This document shows, piece by piece, positions 6,326-19,487 of a stretch of 52,235 nt of DNA; position 1 is the first letter of the stretch, and each line of letters opens with the position of its first letter. Under the pieces are notes generated by a model that did not search any database, was not told the DNA's origin, and saw nothing but the letters and a program-made list of their open reading frames with translations. Made by a program: the position numbers and the translations under genes. Origin of the DNA: a virus (Duplodnaviria; Caudoviricetes); IMG/VR virus record IMGVR_UViG_3300046003_002393, positions 1-52,235 of that record; one strand, 5' to 3'.

Positions 6326-9300
6326 ATGGGGAATCTCGACGATGCAATCCTTGACGAAATCATCGCTCAACGCGGTTCAGGAGTACCTCCCCAAAGTATC
6401 CCAGGGACTTTAGCTCCTTCACCCCCTGCAAGCGCACAGAGGGCGAATCCCGACGATGCAATTCTTGACGAGATCATCGCTCAACGCGACCCCAACGCCG
6501 CGACTGCGGCGAGAGTACAGCAAGCCCTGGGCGACGCGGAAGGCAAGAAGCCCGAAGACGAAGCGCGACGCGCTCAACTTGCGGAGCAGCTAGGCACTGT
6601 ACCCGGCTTGCTACCCTCTATCCCCGAAGCCGAAGCGGAACTCAGGCGTAAGCAACTTCCGACACAAGCGGCAGACCTTGCGGCCAACTCTCCGAAGACA
6701 GCCAATTGGTCTTTGGTTCCGGGGCACACGGCCAGAGCAGGAACATTGGGACTCACGGCTCTCGCTAAGTTAGAGGAGTCGTTCCCCTCCATTGGATACC
6801 CGGCAACAAAACTTCGATCGGGTCTCGCTTCAGCCTCCGCAGGTACCGCAAAGTTAATCGACGATCTTGCGTCGTCCATATACAACCACGTTTACGGGGG
6901 GTACGAAGACCTGAAGGCCAAGCACAGAGCCGATGCGGGGATACCTAAACTGAACCCTCACGACACCTTCATGGGCCGCCTAGCCAAGAGTGAGCAAGAT
7001 AGAAGCGAATCCCTCGCAGCGCGTGCGGATATTATTGATCCTAGCCACAAAGACAAGAAGTACGCTGTCGGATGGAGTGACGAAAACGCGGCGTATAAAG
7101 ACCCGATGAAGATGTTCGGAGACGCTCTTCAATCCCTGCCGAGTACCGCCTTACTAATCGCTGCGAGCGTTGCGTCTAGGGGCGCGGCGGTGGAAGCGCG
7201 TCTTACAAGTTTAGCTGAAAGTGCCGCAGCGGGTATCGCTGAAAGCGTAGCAGCGGCAACCGCGACCAAAGCAGCGATTGCCGCTGCATCGAAGACTATG
7301 GCGATCTTCCAAGGCATAGGTGAGGGGGTTCTGTCCTACGCCCAAAACTCACTATCTACCACCTCTGAGGTGGAGAAGATGGCCTATGACAAGATCGCGA
7401 GCAGCCCGACACTTCAGAAGTACATCAAGATGGGTTACGGGCCTGACGTAGCGCAAGAACTAACTGCGCGTGAAGCCGGGCAGCAATCGGGTATCAGAGG
7501 CGGAGCCTTGACGGGGTTGATAGCCTTCATAGGCGGAAAGTTCACAGGTAAGTTTATCGGTGAAGGTGGCGCTTTCCTCCCCCGTTTTGGTAAGGGGGCG
7601 ATCAACGAAGCCCTTGTGGAAGCCCCCCAAGGTGGCCAAGAACAATGGCAGACCAACCTCGCTATCCGCGAGCACGCGGATAAGACACGCCAACCGGGTG
7701 AAGGAGTGCTTGAGGCTACGGTACAAGGGGCGGTATTAGGACCGATAATAGGTGGCCCGATTGCGGGTTTTGCGGGTAAACACACCCAAGCACAACAAGC
7801 TGTAACTGACCGCGATACACTAAACAAACTTGCGCTTGACGCAGCGGGTAATCCTGTTCGCGAACACTCTCCCAAACCGTACCGAGACTTCATCGACTCT
7901 CTGACAGAGGGGAGACCGGTGCGAGAAGTATTCATCGACACGAATATCCTCCGCGATGTGTTCGCACAAGCAGGAGTAACTGAGAGGGAGTTGACCACAG
8001 TATTCCCCGAGGTCGCCGCGCAGTTAGCCGATGAAGCCAACACCGAAGGGTTTGTCAGTATCAAGACTTCCGACTTGATCACAGGGATTAAGACCCCTGA
8101 GATTCTAAAGTCGGTGCTGGATAACGCTCGGGTTCAGACCGATGGTGAGATGGGTATGACCTTCGCGGAAGCTGAGGCGTTCTTTCAGACTCAGAACGAA
8201 GGCTTAACCCGTGCTCAAGTTAAGGCCGCTGAAGTGCAAGCCGCCGCGAAGCAACACGCTCAAGATATCGCAGAAATCCGCCAAACGATTACCGATGAGC
8301 TAGTCGCGACAGGACGATACGATAGGACCATAGCGGCGACGAATGCGGTGCCCATCACGGCGTTCTACGAACAACGCGCTAGGGACTTCAACGCTGGCCG
8401 CGCTAAGGAGGACTTCACAACAGCGAAGCAGTTGTTTGAACAGTATCCGTATAAGGCGCAGGGTGAAGCGAGTAAATCCATCGGAGAAAACTTCGCGCAG
8501 ACGTCGAGGCTGGAAGACTTCTCCGACCCGAATACCTTCTATCGGGTGATTCGCGGAGATAAAGCATTCCAAGATATTCTTGATACCGGCACGGTCAGAA
8601 CAGACTCTACTAAAAAGACTGGACTAGATAGGCCAACCCTGTTCCCATCGTTCTCTAAAGGTGGCGTGTCAGAGTCCTATGCTGAAGGTGAAGATAACCA
8701 CTACGTTATTACTTCCACCGATTCTTCTATTCAACCCTCCAAGAAGGGCAGACACGGAAAAGGCACCACGATGTTCCCGACTGATCTGGCGGGAAATCAT
8801 CTACCAAGCATAGAAGGCAGTAAAGTCAACGTGTATAAGCACACTGGCAAGGGCAACTATGAATTGGTGTACTCCAACGGAAAGCAAGTTACCCAAGGCG
8901 GTGAGAAGGGTTCGTTCAATCAAGGAGGCGCAGCCACCCCTAGTATCCCAGAACAGTTCTACAGCCAGCTACGCAAAGTATTCCGCGATGCGCCTGAAAA
9001 GATATTCACCGGCGGTGCACAGGTCAAGGCTTGGCTGGCCTCTAATCATGGCAAGTTGGGTATCAAGAAAGAAGAGATATTCTGGTCAGGGATAAACGAG
9101 TACCTTGATATTACAGGCAAGGTAAGCAAGGCGGATGTGCTGGCGTTCCTTGACGGTAACGGGGCTAAGGTTGAAGTGAAGATGCTTGGTAAAGAGCCAA
9201 CTAATGCGGCCGAATTCAAAAAACGAGAAGATGAATTAGATGACCTGCGTGACCGAGGGGGGCGTATATCCCATGATGAGTGGCGACGACGCATGACCGA

Positions 9301-12300
9301 GTTACAAAAAGAGTTTGGCTATGATGAAAACGGTAAACCTTTAGACAAAACAAAATTCGCCCAATACCAACTCCCCGGCGGGACTAACTACAGGGAAATG
9401 CTGATTACGTTGCCTTCAAAGAAGGTTCAGCAGGTTGATGTTATGGGGCGGGAGGAACTATCCGCGTGGTACGAAAAAGAAGTCGGATATAGCCCTATTG
9501 AAGAAGACCCGCAAATATCCACAGATGCGTTGCGCGAATTGGTGCGAGCATACGATGCTGAAAATGGTGCGCAGACATCCCCAACGGTCACGTCAGATTT
9601 CAGGTCATCCCACTTCGACCAACCCAACATAGCCGCCCACATCCGCATGAATGACAGGGTAGGCGCGAATGGCGAGAAGATATTATTTATTGAGGAAGTG
9701 CAGTCAGATTGGGGGCAGAAGGGGAAGAAGGAAGGGTTCTCAAAGGTTGCTGATAAGTCAGAGTTGGACGCCATGAAGGAAGAAATGGCCGCGCTCAACA
9801 GAAGGGCAATTAGTGGGCCAAACTTAAATCAAGCAGAGTACGCACGCCTTGATGAACTTATCCGTCTGACTAAAGCAGGGGTATCCTCAACAGCTAACAC
9901 ACCCGGCGTACCATCCGCCCCTTTCGTAACCGACACAAAAGCATGGGCAAGCCTAGCCATGAAGCACGTCATCCAGCAAGCCGTAGAAGGTGGCTATGAC
10001 TCCGTGGCGTGGACGAATGGCGAGCAACAGTTTGATCGCTGGGGCAGTGAAGAAATAGCATGGGTCAAAGAGGGTAAAGGATGGCGTGTTTCAGCTAAAG
10101 AACAGGTTGGAGGTAACGCTGGCGGGGTTGATCTTGAAGGGGCTGCTAGGGCGCGAGGAATACTTAACGAGGAGACTGGCAAGGTTGTCACATCAAAAGA
10201 GCAGCTTCGTTCAATCGTAGCTACTGTGTTAGCGCGTGAGAACAATGATACGGCGATAGATAAAATAGCTGATCGTACATGGGAGCGTATGCAGTCCGAG
10301 GATGCTGGTACTACCATGCCGAGGCGAGAAGGAATGAAAGGCTACTACGATGCCATCCTGCCCCAAGTAGTAAGCGGCATATTCAAGCAGTTGAAGGTTG
10401 AGGGGAAGGTTGAGAGTGTTGAAGTTAGGGGCGGCTACGCCCGTGACAGTAGCGGTATACCTTCACGGTATAAAGAGCTTACTGAGCAACCAGCCTTCAC
10501 CATCACCCCAGAACTAGCAGCCAAAGTCACAAACGAAGGAATGCCTTTCTTCCAAGCTAACAACGCTGAGTTCAATCCTGCAACGCTGATGTCCACGTTC
10601 TATGCGGGTGCGAATCTGTCCAGCATTATTCACGAATCGGGACACTTCTATCTGGAGATGATGGAGCGCCTGGCCAACCGCCCAGACGCGCCTCAGAAGA
10701 TCAAGGATGACTTCAACCTGTACATGGAGTGGTTCGGGATAGCCCCCGAACAATGGGCGGGTATGGATAACGCGGCGCGTACTCCGTATCACGAACAATT
10801 CGCACTGTCTCAGGAGTTGTGGATGATAGAGGGCAAGTCGCCTACGTTGAATCCGAAGATGGAATCCGCCTTCGCTCGTTTCAGGCAGTGGATGTTGAGC
10901 GTCTACACATCGGCGGCGGAGTTCCTTCGGCAACACCCCTCGGCTGGAAAGCTGAACGATGAAGTGCGGGCCGCGTTCAGTCGTCTGATCGCCAGCGAAG
11001 AAGCGATTCGCGAAGCTGAAGTGGTGAGGGGTTACGTTCCCTTGTTCCAGACCGCTGCGGAGGCTGGCGTATCACAAGAAGCGTTCGACGAATACATGAA
11101 CCTTCGTGAGGAGTTCATCCAGAAGGCGATAAGCACCGCACAGAAGCGTTCCATGCGCGATCTGAAGTGGTTGTCGAACGCGCAGAGTGGTGCGTTGAAG
11201 AAGATTCAAGATCAGGCAGAGGGGTTAAGGTCAACGATCCGTGAGGAGGTAGCAGCGGAGGTGATGGCCGAACCGATCAACCGCGCAAGGCAAGCCATGC
11301 TTAACGGTGAAGTTAAAATGAACATCGAGGAGTTAGGTGCGATGGTCAATAGTCCAGCCGTAGCAGGGATGGTGGCTAAAGACGGGATGCCTTTGGATGT
11401 GGTGGCCGCGCAGTTCGGTTTCCCTTCTTCAGAGGCACTCCTTCAAGAGCTTGCCCATGCGGAGAATGCTCAAGAAAAGATCGCAGGATTGACCGATCAG
11501 CGCATGTTGCAGGAGCACGGCGATATGGTCGATGCGCGTGCTATCGAGAAAGCGATGTACGCTGCGGTGCAGAACGAGGCACTTACCCGCTTTCTGGCCA
11601 CCGGCTTGAAATTACTCTCCAAGTCGAGCCTACCGATCAGTCAGATCACGAAAGCGGCGAAGCTGAAGGCGCAAGAAACAATCTCCAAGATACCACTGAA
11701 TAAGTTACGCCCCGCATACTACGAAGCGGCGGAACGTAAAGCCCTCGCTACCGCCCTAGAGAACGCGGGGAAAGACCCCGCCAGAGCGATAGCGGCGCAA
11801 CAGGCGGCGATACTGAACCGTCAGCTTCACAAAGCGGCTACAGAGACTCAGGAGAGGATTCAGGCTGACGTCGCACGGCTGAAGCGAATCACTAAACCCG
11901 CAGCGCAAAAAGCGATGGGTGGAGAACACATACTGCAACTCAACGCGCTGATAGACCGCTTTGGTATCCGTAGCAAGAACACCCTACTTACTGAGGGCAC
12001 ACCGCGCAAGTCTCTTGCGGAATACGCCGCGACGGAACAGCTTCGCACTTTGAACGCCTACCTGGAGGGAGAAGCGAAGCGCCTCTCCGCGATCGCGCTC
12101 AACGTCCCGAGTTGGATTGCTGACGGTAGCATATCGCAGGACTACAACTCGCTGACAGTAGCGCAGTTCGACGAGTTGATGGATTCGGTGAAAGCGATAG
12201 AGCTACTCGCTAGGCGCGAGCGCGAACAGTACGCCGCTTTTCGCGGGGCAACTTTCGCAGAAGCGAAGGCGAAGAACCTTGCGGTATTCAGGAAGAATTT

Positions 12301-14356
12301 CCCCAAGCTATTCCTCCCGAACGGTCAACTAAAGCCAACCGTGACAGACCCACGGCATAGCGTTGCAAATTCTTTAGGCGACACTTCGGATGCCGTACAA
12401 GCTGCGCTCTCAAGTTCGGAAGCGATAGTGAGTATCCTCGAAGGTGGAAAAGTCGGAGACTTGTTCTACTCCTTGATATGGCCGATGAGTTCACGGAACG
12501 ACTGGAAAGTTGCTCGGATGGAGGAGATATTCAAGGCGGTGCAACCTCTGCTCGACCAGTACAATCCGCTTGAACAAATAGCGTTCACACGCAAAGATAT
12601 CGGTACAGAGGCGCTTGGATTCGTAATGACCCGCGAGGCGGCTCTCACTGTCACGCTTTATCATGGCAGTGAAACGGGTCAGGATAGACTGAGCAATCAC
12701 ACGCTCACCAACGGTAAGCGATTGGATGTCGCTACGCAGCAGAAAGTCATCGACTTATTGGATGCGCGGGATATTAAGTTGGCAAACGGTTTGTGGGCGG
12801 TGTTCGATAAAACTCTGTGGCCTGAGCTAAAGGCGCTGGATGAACGGACTAAAGGCAAGGGCGCTCCGAAGGTTGAAGCAATGTCTCACAAGGCAAAGAA
12901 CGGAGACCTCACCGGCGGGTACTATGAGATTAAGTACGACACGGAAGAGAGCGCGACCCCTGGGAATGAAGCCAGCGCGGTAGCTGAGATGATGTCGGGA
13001 CAAGCCAGTGGGAGAAGGGTCTCCACGGCTCAAGGAACCAGCATTGCGCGGGAGGAGCACACCAAGTACCGTCCTCGCTTGGATTTGGGCGTGTTCTTCG
13101 AGACCGTCAACAAGGTGGTGAACGATCTGGCGTACCGTGAAGTTGTGGCCGACACCCAACGCATGTTGCTCGACCCGGACATAGAGACGGTGATCAAGAC
13201 TGCGGGATCGAAAGTGGAGTACCAAACCTTGCAGCACCGCGTTGGCGCGATGGTTATGGGAGCGCAACTCCCCTCAGGGCCTTTCGAGAAGGCGGCGGAT
13301 TTAGCAAGAAAAAATACTTCCGTTGTGCTTCTCTCAGGGATATGGACAGGATTGCAGAACTACACGAACTTGAGCGCGGTAGCCGATGAACTAGGCACTG
13401 CGAACGTCGCGTGGGAAACTCTCAGGATGCACAGTCCGATGGCCATATCCGCGTTTCGCTTTGGCATGAAGAACTCTGTCTTCTTGCGCAACTATCATCT
13501 TAGCTTCGACCGTACCGTGCAGGAGAACAGCAAGAAGCTGACATCGAAGCAGAAGTTCATGCCCAACATGTCCACATGGTTGTGGTTCATGGGTAAGATT
13601 AACCAGATCGTAGCTTCGATAACATGGAACGCCGCGTACAAGAAGGGGATGGCTCTAAACCAGAACGACCATAACGTGTCGGTCATCTACGCCGATAACA
13701 GGACGAGAAAACTTGTTGGGTCTGGGCGCGATGCTGATGTCACCAAGATCGCAGAGGGACACTGGCTTCCGTTGTTGAACATGATGTACAGCTTCTTCAA
13801 CTCACAGTTAATGATACTGATGGAGAAGTCAACACTGCTCAAGCGCACACTGAAGAGCGATGAGGAGACAGCGGCGTTCAAAGCCAAAGCCGTTGCGCTA
13901 TACGCGAAGTCATGGCTTATGATCGTGGCTATCCCTGCGATACTGGGGGACATGGCCTTGGGCGCGTTCAGGGGCGATCCAGATAAGGACGACGAAGATA
14001 AGTTGACTCACTACTTGAAAGCGATTGGGCTGTATAACATCTCATTCATTCCAGGTGGAGGCTCGGTCGGGGCTTTCCTATACCGTAAAGGTCTTGACAT
14101 GGACTCTTACGGACTCAAGATTTCCCCCGTCGAGGCGGCTATCACAGGAGTCGCTGCGGGGGCTGGCTCCGCAGTAGACATCTGGAACGATGAGGGCGAC
14201 ATCAAGGATGTGGGCAACGAGATAATGGCGTTGAGCTATATGCTCGGCCTTCCAGGGAGCTTCGTCAAGAATGCCGTTGTTGGAGGGTACGCCTACGCTA
14301 ATGAGCAAGCGGGACCAGAAGCACTACTCTTCGGGCCGCCGAAGGTTCCGAGGTGA
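6326..14356 (+). CDS. Giant internal virion / DNA ejection protein (gp16-like position; large polyvalent-type)
   Basis: 2676 aa; HESGH zincin-like motif at 10631-10645; central globular cassettes (LPGGTNYRE, SHFDQPN, FIEEVQSDW); hydrophobic C-terminal helices; last of three ejection genes before the tail fibre. Confidence 0.75.
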   Translation: MGNLDDAILDEIIAQRGSGVPPQSIPGTLAPSPPASAQRANPDDAILDEIIAQRDPNAATAARVQQALGDAEGKKPEDEARRAQLAEQLGTVPGLLPSIPEAEAELRRKQLPTQAADLAANSPKTANWSLVPGHTARAGTLGLTALAKLEESFPSIGYPATKLRSGLASASAGTAKLIDDLASSIYNHVYGGYEDLKAKHRADAGIPKLNPHDTFMGRLAKSEQDRSESLAARADIIDPSHKDKKYAVGWSDENAAYKDPMKMFGDALQSLPSTALLIAASVASRGAAVEARLTSLAESAAAGIAESVAAATATKAAIAAASKTMAIFQGIGEGVLSYAQNSLSTTSEVEKMAYDKIASSPTLQKYIKMGYGPDVAQELTAREAGQQSGIRGGALTGLIAFIGGKFTGKFIGEGGAFLPRFGKGAINEALVEAPQGGQEQWQTNLAIREHADKTRQPGEGVLEATVQGAVLGPIIGGPIAGFAGKHTQAQQAVTDRDTLNKLALDAAGNPVREHSPKPYRDFIDSLTEGRPVREVFIDTNILRDVFAQAGVTERELTTVFPEVAAQLADEANTEGFVSIKTSDLITGIKTPEILKSVLDNARVQTDGEMGMTFAEAEAFFQTQNEGLTRAQVKAAEVQAAAKQHAQDIAEIRQTITDELVATGRYDRTIAATNAVPITAFYEQRARDFNAGRAKEDFTTAKQLFEQYPYKAQGEASKSIGENFAQTSRLEDFSDPNTFYRVIRGDKAFQDILDTGTVRTDSTKKTGLDRPTLFPSFSKGGVSESYAEGEDNHYVITSTDSSIQPSKKGRHGKGTTMFPTDLAGNHLPSIEGSKVNVYKHTGKGNYELVYSNGKQVTQGGEKGSFNQGGAATPSIPEQFYSQLRKVFRDAPEKIFTGGAQVKAWLASNHGKLGIKKEEIFWSGINEYLDITGKVSKADVLAFLDGNGAKVEVKMLGKEPTNAAEFKKREDELDDLRDRGGRISHDEWRRRMTELQKEFGYDENGKPLDKTKFAQYQLPGGTNYREMLITLPSKKVQQVDVMGREELSAWYEKEVGYSPIEEDPQISTDALRELVRAYDAENGAQTSPTVTSDFRSSHFDQPNIAAHIRMNDRVGANGEKILFIEEVQSDWGQKGKKEGFSKVADKSELDAMKEEMAALNRRAISGPNLNQAEYARLDELIRLTKAGVSSTANTPGVPSAPFVTDTKAWASLAMKHVIQQAVEGGYDSVAWTNGEQQFDRWGSEEIAWVKEGKGWRVSAKEQVGGNAGGVDLEGAARARGILNEETGKVVTSKEQLRSIVATVLARENNDTAIDKIADRTWERMQSEDAGTTMPRREGMKGYYDAILPQVVSGIFKQLKVEGKVESVEVRGGYARDSSGIPSRYKELTEQPAFTITPELAAKVTNEGMPFFQANNAEFNPATLMSTFYAGANLSSIIHESGHFYLEMMERLANRPDAPQKIKDDFNLYMEWFGIAPEQWAGMDNAARTPYHEQFALSQELWMIEGKSPTLNPKMESAFARFRQWMLSVYTSAAEFLRQHPSAGKLNDEVRAAFSRLIASEEAIREAEVVRGYVPLFQTAAEAGVSQEAFDEYMNLREEFIQKAISTAQKRSMRDLKWLSNAQSGALKKIQDQAEGLRSTIREEVAAEVMAEPINRARQAMLNGEVKMNIEELGAMVNSPAVAGMVAKDGMPLDVVAAQFGFPSSEALLQELAHAENAQEKIAGLTDQRMLQEHGDMVDARAIEKAMYAAVQNEALTRFLATGLKLLSKSSLPISQITKAAKLKAQETISKIPLNKLRPAYYEAAERKALATALENAGKDPARAIAAQQAAILNRQLHKAATETQERIQADVARLKRITKPAAQKAMGGEHILQLNALIDRFGIRSKNTLLTEGTPRKSLAEYAATEQLRTLNAYLEGEAKRLSAIALNVPSWIADGSISQDYNSLTVAQFDELMDSVKAIELLARREREQYAAFRGATFAEAKAKNLAVFRKNFPKLFLPNGQLKPTVTDPRHSVANSLGDTSDAVQAALSSSEAIVSILEGGKVGDLFYSLIWPMSSRNDWKVARMEEIFKAVQPLLDQYNPLEQIAFTRKDIGTEALGFVMTREAALTVTLYHGSETGQDRLSNHTLTNGKRLDVATQQKVIDLLDARDIKLANGLWAVFDKTLWPELKALDERTKGKGAPKVEAMSHKAKNGDLTGGYYEIKYDTEESATPGNEASAVAEMMSGQASGRRVSTAQGTSIAREEHTKYRPRLDLGVFFETVNKVVNDLAYREVVADTQRMLLDPDIETVIKTAGSKVEYQTLQHRVGAMVMGAQLPSGPFEKAADLARKNTSVVLLSGIWTGLQNYTNLSAVADELGTANVAWETLRMHSPMAISAFRFGMKNSVFLRNYHLSFDRTVQENSKKLTSKQKFMPNMSTWLWFMGKINQIVASITWNAAYKKGMALNQNDHNVSVIYADNRTRKLVGSGRDADVTKIAEGHWLPLLNMMYSFFNSQLMILMEKSTLLKRTLKSDEETAAFKAKAVALYAKSWLMIVAIPAILGDMALGAFRGDPDKDDEDKLTHYLKAIGLYNISFIPGGGSVGAFLYRKGLDMDSYGLKISPVEAAITGVAAGAGSAVDIWNDEGDIKDVGNEIMALSYMLGLPGSFVKNAVVGGYAYANEQAGPEALLFGPPKVPR

Positions 14357-17175: not shown

Positions 17176-17651
17176 ACCCCTACGTGCTGCTTGCAGTGAT
17201 ACTCTTCCTTGCCGGCTCACATACCACTGCTTACTTTCAAGGTCGTGGAGCGCGTGACGATGAAGTAAAGGTAGAGAATGCTAAGATCGCTGCCAAAGCC
17301 GCTGCGGAGTATAAAGTAGCTGTAGATTACGGCAACAAGAAAGCTGCCGAGGTGCAAGAACTAGAGCGCTCATCTGCTGAAGTGTTAACGGAGGTATTAA
17401 TCAATGTTGCTAAAATCACTACTGGGAAGTCTTGCTTGTCTGCTGATGCTGTCAGGCTGCTCAACAAACCCACTAAGGTCTCTGGTCTGTCCCCACGTCC
17501 CCGCGACCCTGATGAAGAAAGTGCCGGAGGAGTTGCCTCCGATACCGACATCGTTAACTGGATTGCCAGAGCACAAGATCAGTATAAAAAGTGTGCTGCC
17601 AATAACAACGGGATTGTAGATATTTTAGTTAATGGCGAAAAACTAAAATAG
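17172..17651 (+). CDS. Rz: i-spanin (Rz-like)
   Basis: N-terminal TM anchor followed by coiled coil; contains a nested lipoprotein ORF. Confidence 0.8.
   Translation: MNPYVLLAVILFLAGSHTTAYFQGRGARDDEVKVENAKIAAKAAAEYKVAVDYGNKKAAEVQELERSSAEVLTEVLINVAKITTGKSCLSADAVRLLNKPTKVSGLSPRPRDPDEESAGGVASDTDIVNWIARAQDQYKKCAANNNGIVDILVNGEKLK
17404..17619 (+). CDS. Rz1: o-spanin (Rz1-like lipoprotein, embedded in Rz)
   Basis: Signal peptide with lipobox LSGC, Pro-rich mature part, +1 frame inside Rz. Confidence 0.8.
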   Translation: MLLKSLLGSLACLLMLSGCSTNPLRSLVCPHVPATLMKKVPEELPPIPTSLTGLPEHKISIKSVLPITTGL

Positions 17652-17669
17652 CGTTGGAGTTGTTTTAGT

Positions 17670-19487
17670 TCAAAGCAAGTCAGAAATAACATCTATCGTT
17701 TCCATCATCGCGATTCTTTCGCCCAATATCCGCATACAATTTACCGCCATACTGTTGCCCAAAGCCTTGTACCGCGCTGAGTTTGATGCACCAGGTATGT
17801 TGGTATAACCGTGGGTAAGGCTAAGATTTATTGCGTATGAATTGCCGTTGTGCATTTGCTCTGGAATGAATGAACTTATGACACTCACGACAAAGCAACA
17901 CAAGGTTTGAATGCTCTGTTCGTAACTCTGGAAATTTGACCCAACTTCCGATGTGATGAACTTCATGCAGTCGTTCTTTGTAGACATGAACTTTGTGGCA
18001 TCGCTGACAAGTTGCTCGATCTCTTGTCCAGATACGTCTACAGACTTGCTTCCATATCCGTGATGAGAAGAATTGTTGATGTTCTGTGGTAATGCCGCCC
18101 CTCCAACAATGGTGTTTGTCCCCAACAAGGTGTGCAGTCTTACATTTAATTGAACAAAATCGTCTAGTTGAATAGGCAGGCGACACCATTTTTGTTTGTC
18201 CGCAAGATTGACAGACAAGAGCAACTTTCCTTGATTGTGTATTTCCAGAGTTCGTGCCTCTAAATTTAGAAGCGCAGACACCTCCGCAAGTTCGGAAGTC
18301 TTGTGATTGCTTTGTCGTGAATTCACCTCCGCAAATGATGCAATTTTTTGTGATTCGCTTACTACGGCATTGCCAGCAACATTTGGCAACTTGGGACATT
18401 GCGTTTCCGCAAGCGCATTGGTTTTTTGATGGTCTGAGCATACGCGAAGTATAACAGTTTTCGTTACCTCAGGAAACCCCTGCAATCTTTCGCACTCAAG
18501 CGGAGTTAATCGGCGTACTCGCATTTGTGAGCAGACAGCCATTTGGTTATCACCAGGTTCTTTGCGAATAGTCCCTGTGTGCTCTTCGTAAGCAACCGCA
18601 TGAACATCCGTCTTGGTTAGCGTATAGGATGACCCTGTATCATCGTAGCCAGTGCCATTCCCGCCATTCTCAGGTGCGCGTCCGATTGTGTTTCCAGCTA
18701 AGGCATAAGTCGGTACAAACAGCGGTGCGCCCTCGTTGATATGCTGATTTTCCAATCCTTGTTTATCTCCGAAGTGTGCGTTTAACGTGCTTGCGATTTC
18801 AGCCGGCCATTTCTTCACTGGCAAGATATGTCCACAGGCTGCGTCTTGCGCTCCGATACTAACGCCAGTGCGCGCTCCAATTGTTCCGGCAAATTCTTGC
18901 CCCTTACTTCTGCTCGGCGGAGGATTCCCGCACAGGCTTTCGGAGTCAAAAAGAACTGCGGCTGCACTTCGCCAGTCTCCAAGACATCCGATAACGAACA
19001 CACGCCTTCGTCTTTGCGGGACGGCTCTAGGGTGCTCATGTGTTCTGCTGAATTGAGCATCAAGAACTCGGTAGGCGAACCCATAGCCGAGTTGCCCCAA
19101 CCCTCCAAGGAAGGTTCCAAAATCCCTTCCGCCGTTACTCGACAAGACCCCCGGTACGTTTTCCCAGACAATCCATTTCGGCTTATATCGATCAGCAATT
19201 GCGAGGTAGATGAGCATGAGGTTGCCACGCGGGTCATCCAATCCTTTTCGCAAACCTGCGACTGAGAATGATTGACAAGGGGTTCCGCCGACAAGAACAT
19301 TGATAGTTGCATCAGGCCACTCCTTAAATTTAGTCATGTCGCCTAGGTTCGGGACGCTTGGGTAGTGGTGCGCCAACACTTTGCAAGGAAAAGGTTCTAT
19401 CTCTGAAAACCCGATAGGGTTCCAACCAAGCGGATGCCAAGCGCATGTAGCTGCTTCGATTCCACTGCATACCGAAAGGTAATTCAC
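17670..19487 (-). CDS. DNA (cytosine-5) methyltransferase with a 219-aa in-frame insertion
   Basis: Motif I SVCSGIEA, IV GGTPCQSFS, VI WENVPG, VIII PQRRRRVF, IX RRLTPLECERLQGFPE, X RYKALGNSM; insertion lies between FPE and GYTNIPG. Confidence 0.92.
   Translation of the reverse strand: MNYLSVCSGIEAATCAWHPLGWNPIGFSEIEPFPCKVLAHHYPSVPNLGDMTKFKEWPDATINVLVGGTPCQSFSVAGLRKGLDDPRGNLMLIYLAIADRYKPKWIVWENVPGVLSSNGGRDFGTFLGGLGQLGYGFAYRVLDAQFSRTHEHPRAVPQRRRRVFVIGCLGDWRSAAAVLFDSESLCGNPPPSRSKGQEFAGTIGARTGVSIGAQDAACGHILPVKKWPAEIASTLNAHFGDKQGLENQHINEGAPLFVPTYALAGNTIGRAPENGGNGTGYDDTGSSYTLTKTDVHAVAYEEHTGTIRKEPGDNQMAVCSQMRVRRLTPLECERLQGFPEVTKTVILRVCSDHQKTNALAETQCPKLPNVAGNAVVSESQKIASFAEVNSRQSNHKTSELAEVSALLNLEARTLEIHNQGKLLLSVNLADKQKWCRLPIQLDDFVQLNVRLHTLLGTNTIVGGAALPQNINNSSHHGYGSKSVDVSGQEIEQLVSDATKFMSTKNDCMKFITSEVGSNFQSYEQSIQTLCCFVVSVISSFIPEQMHNGNSYAINLSLTHGYTNIPGASNSARYKALGNSMAVNCMRILGERIAMMETIDVISDLL
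17811..18467 (-). mobile_element. 657-bp in-frame insertion carrying an out-of-frame HNH gene
   Basis: Removal restores canonical LQGFPE|GYTNIPGASNSARYKALGNS; length is a multiple of 3; no stop in the host frame. Confidence 0.8.
17821..18441 (-). CDS. Zinc-finger HNH endonuclease nested in the methyltransferase (alternative frame)
   Basis: Multiple CxxC units; RDRATCQRC...EVHHIGSW...SNLVLLCRECHKFIH HNH motif. Confidence 0.88.
   Translation of the reverse strand: MLRPSKNQCACGNAMSQVAKCCWQCRSKRITKNCIICGGEFTTKQSQDFRTCGGVCASKFRGTNSGNTQSRKVALVCQSCGQTKMVSPAYSTRRFCSIKCKTAHLVGDKHHCWRGGITTEHQQFFSSRIWKQVCRRIWTRDRATCQRCHKVHVYKERLHEVHHIGSWVKFPELRTEHSNLVLLCRECHKFIHSRANAQRQFIRNKS
18815..19312 (-). CDS. 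Overprinted ORF resembling the M.EcoHK31I beta polypeptide
   Basis: TAAGGAG SD 7 nt before ATG; C-terminal CSLSDVLETG...FFLTPKACAGILRRAEVRGKNLP..LERAL; +1 frame inside the MTase. Confidence 0.72.
   Translation of the reverse strand: MQLSMFLSAEPLVNHSQSQVCEKDWMTRVATSCSSTSQLLIDISRNGLSGKTYRGSCRVTAEGILEPSLEGWGNSAMGSPTEFLMLNSAEHMSTLEPSRKDEGVCSLSDVLETGEVQPQFFLTPKACAGILRRAEVRGKNLPEQLERALALVSERKTQPVDISCQ

Follow-up and report, generated by a model that had tools for sequence, protein, structure and literature searches.

An HNH endonuclease gene lying out of frame in a stop-free insertion within a viral C5 DNA methyltransferase gene: a probable homing element without splicing

The current study concerns a 657-bp insertion in a predicted DNA methyltransferase gene of the virus record IMGVR_UViG_3300046003_002393, the whole 52,235-bp stretch of which (rated complete) is referred to below as the window. 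The insertion is nearly filled by a gene for a predicted HNH endonuclease in a different reading frame, and the frame of the methyltransferase runs through it without a stop codon. The data make it likely that the insertion is a homing element without splicing, kept in its host gene by the stop-free host frame and expressing its nuclease out of frame.

In the proposed mechanism, a mobile element consisting of little more than an HNH gene would have entered the methyltransferase gene at a conserved stretch of codons that follows motif IX (QGFPD/E) and precedes motif X. The ribosome would read through the stop-free insertion, giving a 605-amino-acid (aa) methyltransferase with 219 residues looped out at its surface. 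The HNH protein would be translated in the -1 frame of that strand, from a leaderless transcript starting at the AUG; in most relatives a -10 hexamer, often TGn-extended, ends exactly 6 nt upstream of the ATG, and a minority have an AGGA-type ribosome site in place of the -10 box. By analogy with intron and intein homing, the HNH protein would cleave the conserved site in methyltransferase alleles that lack the insert, which would acquire the element by copying during repair.

The host gene and the hidden nuclease gene

The features of the locus are listed in table 1. The initial annotation had placed the insertion between motifs IX and X, and every coordinate it gave agreed with the open reading frame (ORF) list and the sequence. 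The ORF and Pfam data also confirmed that the HNH gene occupies 621 of the 657 nt in a shifted frame, with flanks of 26 and 10 nt: its start lies 1046 nt after that of the methyltransferase, and 1046 mod 3 is 2, which places it in a different frame. Across the insertion the host frame reads LQGFPE/VTKTVILRV...YAINLSLTH/GYTNIPG...RYKALGNS (slashes mark the junctions), and the 219 inserted residues had no family match in Pfam. Removal of the insertion had been said to restore LQGFPE/GYTNIPG...RYKALGNS, as is borne out by the uninterrupted homologues P0004-P0007, which read L[QM]G[FY]PD/xYTNIP.

Table 1. Coordinates, in the numbering of the window, of the methyltransferase gene, the insertion and the features within it
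Feature	Position	Strand	Details
Whole methyltransferase ORF	17670..19487	minus	605 aa; ORF list
Methyltransferase part 5' of the insertion	18468..19487	minus	aa 1-340; GTG start; PCQ, ENV and QRR; ends ...RRLTPLECERLQGFPE (motif IX)
Insertion, 657 bp	17811..18467	minus	219 codons, stop-free in the methyltransferase frame
5' flank of the insertion, 26 nt	18442..18467	minus	coding in the host frame only (VTKTVILRV); carries the putative HNH promoter
Extended -10-like box TGT TATACT	18448..18456	minus	hexamer spans -12..-7, counted from the A of the HNH start codon ATG; 6-nt gap
HNH endonuclease gene (predicted), 206 aa	17821..18441	minus	frame -1 (+2) relative to the host; 621 nt including stop; PF01844
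3' flank of the insertion, 10 nt	17811..17820	minus	follows the TAG stop of the HNH gene
Methyltransferase part 3' of the insertion	17670..17810	minus	GYTNIPG...RYKALGNSMAVN..., motif X, stop codon

The 605-aa host protein is a predicted C5 cytosine DNA methyltransferase. The Pfam family DNA_methylase (PF00145) matched with E 2.7e-43, covering only aa 1-340 (profile positions 1-291 of 324). The motifs of C5 methyltransferases include IV (PCQ, with the catalytic Cys), VI (ENV), VIII (QxRxR) and X (GNS). In an alignment of 72 methyltransferases, 68 with the insert and 4 without, P70 C71 Q72, E109 N110 V111, Q158 and R160 were invariant. Downstream of the insertion Y573, G577 and N578 were invariant as well, indicating that selection continues to act on the host frame of the part carrying motif X. 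The methyltransferase core was modelled by AF2 with a pLDDT above 90 and matched M.HaeIII (1dct) and M.HhaI.

The same family match was found among the relatives described below, in all 13 host-frame ORFs tested, the most divergent included (12 above the Pfam cut-off and that of L161 just below it). By tblastn both methyltransferase parts adjoined the HNH gene, and in every locus with adjoining exon matches they lay in frame HNH+1. In L012/L116, L110 and L118 the N-terminal catalytic part is in a different frame from the ORF holding motif IX, the insert and motif X; these are either split two-subunit enzymes or frameshifted genes, and the frame of the insert is still open in them. Another relative, L024:761-3718 (+), has a Hint_2 (intein) match at aa 117-159 of its C5 methyltransferase in addition to the out-of-frame HNH insert, i.e. 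two mobile elements within one gene. Five methyltransferase homologues of 669-723 aa (P0010, P0017, P0032, P0055 and P0068) align over just 34-43% of the query and probably carry other, different insertions.

The product of the hidden ORF is a predicted HNH endonuclease. Pfam HNH (PF01844) matched aa 145-194 with E 2.2e-9 and 37.7 bits against a cut-off of 21.4; this domain is C-terminal, and the N-terminal half holds zinc-finger-like motifs of CxxC-type cysteine pairs. A protein database search returned 15 separately called homologues that were 42-66% identical, and in the 16 sequences together the Cys pairs (including C184 and C187) and H162, H163, N179, H188 and H192 were invariant. When the gene was compared with 50,697 phage records by megablast, no match was obtained, and a tblastn search with the HNH protein as query likewise revealed no close relative of full length in a cultured phage. 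The tblastn search returned 25 records at E <=1e-5, all of them less than 60% identical and none annotated as a methyltransferase, and 872 records at E <=10.

The open host frame in the window and its relatives

The initial annotation estimated the chance of an open host frame as (61/64)^219. The arithmetic is right (2.7e-5), but the null model is not, since with the HNH protein held fixed the probability for the window is about 0.03-0.05. In two such models, in which synonymous codons were randomised, the host frame was stop-free in 5.2% of trials when the codons of the gene itself were permuted and in 3.0% when host-exon codon usage was applied. In the window alone, the open frame is only mildly surprising, and these values are what favours the explanation that it is open by chance in this one sequence.

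The DNA of relatives was collected from viral contigs, metagenomes and genomes with similarity to the HNH protein as the sole criterion, without regard to the host frame. The query was alignment A2, composed of the HNH protein of the window and the 15 separately called relatives; a locus search with the single window protein found nothing. In 119 loci the HNH match extended over 150 aa or more, and 96 of these, the window included, had unique HNH DNA. No stop was present in frame HNH+1 over the whole HNH match in 94 of the 96, although the 94 are only 36-60% identical to the window in HNH sequence and their GC content ranges from 25 to 63%. The third frame (HNH+2) of the same 94 loci had 2-35 stops (median 10).

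Host-frame stops were present in L033 (6 stops) and L076 (8 stops), which at 33% and 28% identity are the relatives furthest from the window. By tblastn the region of L033 held just a short match resembling the upstream exon, in another frame, and that of L076 none. Among 46 unique relatives that matched the HNH domain only, two had no +1 stops, and the mean was 3.4 stops per 100 codons.

With the HNH protein fixed, the median probability of an open frame in the family was 0.096 (n=94) or 0.03 (n=76), and about 1.7-2.9 stops would be expected per gene. The frame has stayed open although synonymous sites have turned over many times, which points to selection for read-through; on this comparative evidence the family-wide openness of the host frame reflects selection. 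Two features of the sample weigh against this reading: the metagenome contigs comprise the best 80 of 324 matching stretches, and the 94 sequences are related and not independent trials, so that the product of their probabilities is not a P value.

Selection for read-through had been put forward in the initial annotation from the window alone, with stops in the host frame of relatives named as the test. It is supported by the relatives, which were fetched blind to the host frame: stops occurred in just two of the 96 unique loci, the two most distant.

An open frame due to chance in one sequence or to an assembly artefact is refuted by these relatives, and also by identical DNA across both junctions on contigs of other lake-water runs, including a 1278-nt contig of run X19 that covers 17600-18820 with 0 differences; we give this explanation virtually no weight. 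No joint spanning 17811-18467 and no insert-free allele was seen in the contigs of runs X19, X18, X16 and X20. A joint from 17765 to 18975 in run contigs, with sides of 20 nt, was judged unreliable.

Absence of intron and intein signatures

Group I introns are marked by a ribozyme core (Rfam Intron_gpI), a 5' exon ending in U and an intron ending in G. Group II introns are marked by a 5' GUGYG, domains V and VI, a structured RNA of some 600 nt or more and usually a reverse-transcriptase ORF. The initial annotation reported no intron hallmarks, in agreement with an Rfam scan of 17500-18800, which returned no intron and just two matches, both to unrelated families and with E values expected by chance (6.6 and 9.1). 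With respect to group I, there was no Rfam match at E <=10, the upstream exon ends in ...GAG rather than U, and 36 nt lie outside the ORF; the boundary is ambiguous by 1 nt, so that the insertion could end in G, and the upstream exon would still end in G. With respect to group II, the insertion starts with GTAACG, had no Rfam match and contains the HNH gene as its sole ORF.

Group I introns commonly carry HNH genes, and the insertion might be removed from the RNA by an undescribed self-splicing or host-assisted intron, the open frame being incidental or otherwise used. We regard this as very improbable, in view of the chance-level Rfam hits, the mere 26 + 10 nt outside the HNH ORF and the upstream exon ending in G. 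Such an intron would also give no reason for a stop-free host frame in 94 of 96 loci or for an insertion length that is a multiple of 3.

Inteins are marked by a Hint fold, an N-terminal Cys or Ser (or Ala), and a C-terminal His-Asn followed by Cys, Ser or Thr. The absence of intein hallmarks noted in the initial annotation extends to the family: no Hint or intein Pfam domain was found in the 605-aa protein at E <=0.01, the junctions of the window read V...H/G with no intein nucleophiles, and the junction residues vary among relatives (first V/I/L/F/Y, last H/T/C/Q/K/S/R and others, +1 G/A/D/P/E).

An unconventional self-excising intein with an out-of-frame endonuclease would account for a host frame that is translated through. 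Out-of-frame endonucleases are reported for some actinophage inteins in the portion of bioRxiv 10.1101/2025.01.02.630785 covered here, and L024 has a real Hint domain elsewhere in its methyltransferase. The lack of a Hint match, the unconserved junctions without nucleophiles and the absence of a solved-structure match for the model of the insert (best VIA Z 4.5, Foldseek E 0.12) leave this explanation with hardly any probability. We infer that the insertion persists without splicing; against this, RNA or protein excision of some unknown kind may occur.

Insertion site, distribution and mobility

In a protein search, insert-bearing methyltransferases were represented by at least 15 long proteins (573-692 aa, 42-61% identical, 97-100% query cover). 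This sample of called proteins is not decisive for the openness of the frame because called proteins are biased to open frames. The insert was absent from P0004-P0007, which are 73-78% identical to the window protein by BLASTP and 74-81% in alignment A1. In all 15 other insert-bearing proteins of A1 it occupied the same site, between QGFPx and xYT. A regular expression found both flanking motifs around the HNH gene, 202-262 residues apart, in 71 of the 94 loci, and in the remaining 23 the motifs were spelled differently or the contig end was reached. In the printed flanks the insert follows motif IX (QGFPx, with variants such as LQTLPE and AQGFPFW) and precedes xYT...RYKxLGNS.

The diverged copies of the element, at least 94, came from five bacterial genomes and from metagenomes of lakes, soil, marine sites and wastewater. 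In the bacterial genomes (L162-L166) the relatives are full-length; the assemblies are labelled Massilia sp., Sphingomonas fennica and Vannielia litorea, or are metagenome-assembled genomes of Clostridia and Actinomycetota, and presumably these copies sit in prophages. Run X20, from wastewater and labelled RNA-Seq (probably DNA), yielded contigs that were 85-99% like the insert over 17781-18476, with 4-34 differences per contig, indicating that close relatives of the element occur outside lake water.

The absence of the insert from close methyltransferases, together with its identical site in methyltransferases that are about 30% identical, fits homing. The identities of the HNH proteins and of the exteins are correlated in part (r2 0.28), and discordant pairs occur in both directions: the window and L082 share 60% of their HNH residues and 31% of their extein residues, and L006 and L021 have 86% identical exteins and 45% identical HNH proteins. 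A Mantel test of HNH against extein distances gave r 0.53, with 0 of 2000 permutations as high, showing that much of the inheritance is vertical, which counts against mobility. Taken together, the comparison indicates that the element has been inherited by a mix of vertical descent and transfer.

Constraint on the host-frame segment and its predicted fold

The HNH proteins had a mean pairwise identity of 49% and the exteins one of 53%, whereas translation of the HNH DNA in the host frame gave 28%, suggesting that the nuclease is the primary constraint on the insert. The host-frame segment was compared with a null in which synonymous codons were permuted within each gene while the frame was kept stop-free, using HNH-guided columns of 53 sequences. 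Host-frame identity was 0.287 against 0.229 in the null for all 1378 pairs (z ~49), and 0.243 against 0.206 for the 610 pairs with HNH identity below 48% (z ~23); shared descent may inflate this signal of synonymous-site constraint.

Individual codons showed the same tendency. The invariant His188 is encoded by CAT in 51 of 53 sequences (Ile in the host frame) and His163 by CAC in 43 of 53 (Thr); Cys37 is encoded by TGC in 47 of 53 and Cys56 by TGT in 45 of 53, and Ser193 by TCC in 39 of 53 (Pro in the host frame). These opposite choices at like residues rule out general codon bias as the cause. It therefore appears from the codon data that the filler read in the host frame is itself constrained, with its residues fixed in part by the codon choice of the HNH gene.

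In the AF2 model of the whole protein, each end of the insert was predicted to form a strand (341-350 and 550-559, pLDDT ~84-87), with a small beta-meander with a helix at about 400-456 (pLDDT 79-84 over 401-430 and 60-80 beyond), whereas other parts of the insert fell below 50. Prediction of the insert alone gave the same picture with a mean pLDDT of 60. Couplings belonging to the HNH frame might leak into the prediction of the insert. No convincing match to a solved structure was found for the insert model (Foldseek gave none at E <=0.001), which says little at a pLDDT of 60.

The initial annotation had described the insert ends as two beta-strands that could loop out a tolerated filler. The strands at both ends agree with the model, but the N-terminal V-I-L/I pattern is at least partly a translation of the -10 box discussed below. 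Likewise, read-through of the filler is supported, but the filler is not merely tolerated, given that HNH synonymous sites are constrained by position.

Such constraint raises the alternative that the insert has been domesticated, either as a two-gene module (restriction-modification-like or directed against competitors) or because the host-frame segment has its own function in the methyltransferase. The position-specific codon choices at His188/His163, Cys37/Cys56 and Ser193, the parts of the insert predicted at pLDDT 80-89 and the Mantel correlation would all fit domestication, and co-option is raised as speculation in the Discussion of PMC11855218. We consider it unlikely, since methyltransferases that are 73-78% identical lack the insert, and since identical codons hit in methyltransferases about 30% identical, together with the discordant HNH/extein pairs, make up the pattern of site-specific homing. 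The low identity of the insert in the host frame relative to both the HNH protein and the exteins also speaks against it.

Expression of the hidden gene

For analysis of the promoter, 91 relatives were aligned on the HNH start codon (ATG in 85, GTG in 6), and 7594 other ATG triplets of the same loci served as controls. In the window the start is preceded by TGT TATACT tcgcgt ATG (18456-18439). Across the relatives, positions -12 to -7 matched TATAAT at a mean of 3.99 of 6 bases, compared with 1.36 of 6 at control ATGs. T-12, A-11 and T-7 were all present in 58/91 (0.7% of controls), at least 5 of 6 bases matched in 37/91 (0.4% of controls) and the hexamer was perfect in 16/91 (0.03% of controls), while TG stood at -15/-14 in 28/91 (6.6% of controls).

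Wobble positions of the host frame carried 0.74 bits (-12) and 0.35 bits (-9) of information inside the hexamer, compared with 0.04-0.13 bits at five of six wobble positions outside it (-3, -6, -15, -21 and -24). This difference argues for a DNA-level signal rather than conservation of a V-I-I peptide alone. A hexamer that ends 6 nt before the ATG would set the start of transcription at the AUG, and the HNH protein is probably made from its own leaderless transcript beginning there.

Several observations weaken this proposal. The sixth outside wobble position, -18, had 0.49 bits, and as the box overlaps the V-I-I codons of the host frame, selection on the protein could be part of its conservation. 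A consensus promoter scan that required a -35 hexamer did not report the HNH -10 site. Three or fewer TATAAT matches were present in 31/91 relatives, and a motif resembling a Shine-Dalgarno (SD) sequence was found instead in 18/91, so that one expression route does not fit all.

An SD-like 4-mer lay 4-10 nt upstream of these 18 of 91 HNH starts and of 20 of 35 host methyltransferase starts; several of the 18 relatives have GAGGAT or TAGGAT where the box would be, which suggests an alternative expression route. As a general start signal for the HNH gene a canonical SD sequence was rejected, being present in just 18/91. A fusion of methyltransferase and HNH protein by -1 frameshifting was likewise rejected as a general route, because 48/91 relatives have a stop in the HNH frame within 27 nt 5' of the ATG and because the ATG/GTG start is conserved in the 91.

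Upstream of the box, the GFP codons of the exon (TTyCCn) fall at -35 to -30 with a 17-nt spacer and match TTGACA in 3-4 of 6 bases; no claim is made for this match. The window also has a conserved A-run at 18457-18467 (minus strand), -26 to -16 from the HNH ATG, and A is found at -19 in 84% of the 91 relatives.

Comparison with known systems

A similar arrangement, the 'ShiLan domain' of the mycobacteriophage methylase gp65, was described by Arsenault, Gosselin and Gogarten (Genes 2025;16:178; PMC11855218). The text of that report presents a host frame that stays open across an HNH gene in another frame, neither an intron nor an intein, and a predicted looped-out structure, with leaderless translation of the HNH gene offered as speculation. 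The ShiLan element, as described there, agrees with that of the window in that a DNA methylase gene carries an insert nearly filled by an HNH gene, the host frame is stop-free, signatures of introns and inteins were not found, related methylases have the insert in some cases and lack it in others, and the predicted structure shows a stem like a hairpin and a body that is mostly of low confidence. The flanks are short in both (18 nt and about 1 nt in ShiLan, 26 and 10 nt in the window), and the frame offset is the same, the HNH gene of ShiLan starting 1730 nt after the start of gp65 (NC_041988.1) and that of the window 1046 nt after its host start, both 2 mod 3.

Sequence similarity between the two HNH proteins is limited. 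Hhalign aligned the zinc-finger segment and the W[KR]GG linker (probability 94%, 54 columns), and BLASTP the zinc-finger segment only (27% over 63 aa, E 7e-5). The host of the ShiLan element, gp65, is an N6/N4 methylase (PF01555), whereas that of the window is a C5 methylase (PF00145). The ShiLan nuclease has a central, zinc-finger-flanked HNH_3 domain (PF13392), whereas in the window PF01844 is C-terminal, after a cysteine-rich half. The HNH gene of ShiLan starts with GTG, and in that one sequence no TAnnnT box was apparent by eye at -12 to -7. As far as the text of the report goes, ShiLan comprises about ten nearly identical actinophage copies, compared with the at least 94 diverged copies from many habitats found here. 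Judged from the sequences, the element of the window would work like ShiLan and is outside the ShiLan sequence family.

According to section 3.6 of PMC11855218, Pacc40 gp60 holds a putative HNH-like ORF out of frame in a methylase-domain gene with an open host frame; by the wording of that section it differs in being a helicase-methylase fusion with another site and an ORF of 160 aa. Inteins with out-of-frame or antisense homing endonuclease genes are described in the part of bioRxiv 10.1101/2025.01.02.630785 covered, and resemble the window in that the endonuclease gene overlaps a segment of the host frame through which translation continues. As presented there, those inteins keep splicing domains in the host frame, whereas none is detectable in the element of the window.

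The split methyltransferases of phages Omega and Dove were rejected as a parallel, being a different case of two ORFs with an HNH gene downstream. I-HmuI and I-TevIII are phage HNH homing endonucleases of the group I intron-borne or free-standing kind. The window resembles this type in having a zinc-finger HNH nuclease at conserved codons and presence/absence polymorphism. Unlike it, the window has no ribozyme, and its host gene is neither split into two ORFs nor evidently spliced.

The literature searched beyond PMC11855218 yielded only actinophage reports. A C5-methylase family, a family-wide test of the frame, a -10 box and synonymous-site constraint are unreported in that literature, which for PMC11855218 comprised the main article. 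On this basis the concept has been in print since 2025, and what is new here is the host methylase superfamily, the HNH family, the diversity and the comparative evidence.

Other features of the window

Two further predicted genes lie close together on the minus strand: one with a dATP/dGTP diphosphohydrolase N-terminal domain (PF18909, 27987-28472) and a dCMP deaminase (PF00383, 27145-27618). Their proximity is a hint that this phage engages in chemistry of the nucleotide pool or of DNA modification. An ORF of 2676 aa (6326-14356, plus strand) had no Pfam match at E <=1e-5, and the same was true of the neighbouring ORFs of 889, 938 and 496 aa.

Implications

Homing endonuclease genes are thought to survive in essential or useful genes only within a self-splicing intron or an intein, or else between genes. 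It is conceivable, and we put it forward tentatively, that the element represents a widespread and ancient 'naked' homing family with a third strategy of persistence, in which the overprinted polypeptide is under selection and the nuclease mRNA is leaderless and driven by a -10 box formed from host codons. Held just as tentatively, as part of the same proposal, a beta-stem and a small sheet would hold the extra segment off the methyltransferase, and two frames and a promoter would be packed into 657 nt.

The ShiLan report (PMC11855218, main text) suggested a third way of survival from about ten nearly identical mycobacteriophage copies. The present family would place that idea on a firmer comparative footing, with dozens of diverged members in another methylase superfamily and in many habitats, and would add measurable constraint on both overlapping frames and a testable expression route for the hidden gene. 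There is also a consequence for annotation, as gene callers give one long 'methyltransferase' and miss the nuclease; 15 HNH genes were called separately, compared with 94 loci found by DNA scans. Finally, the insert may be a natural case of protein sequence arising de novo by overprinting and later being shaped by selection.

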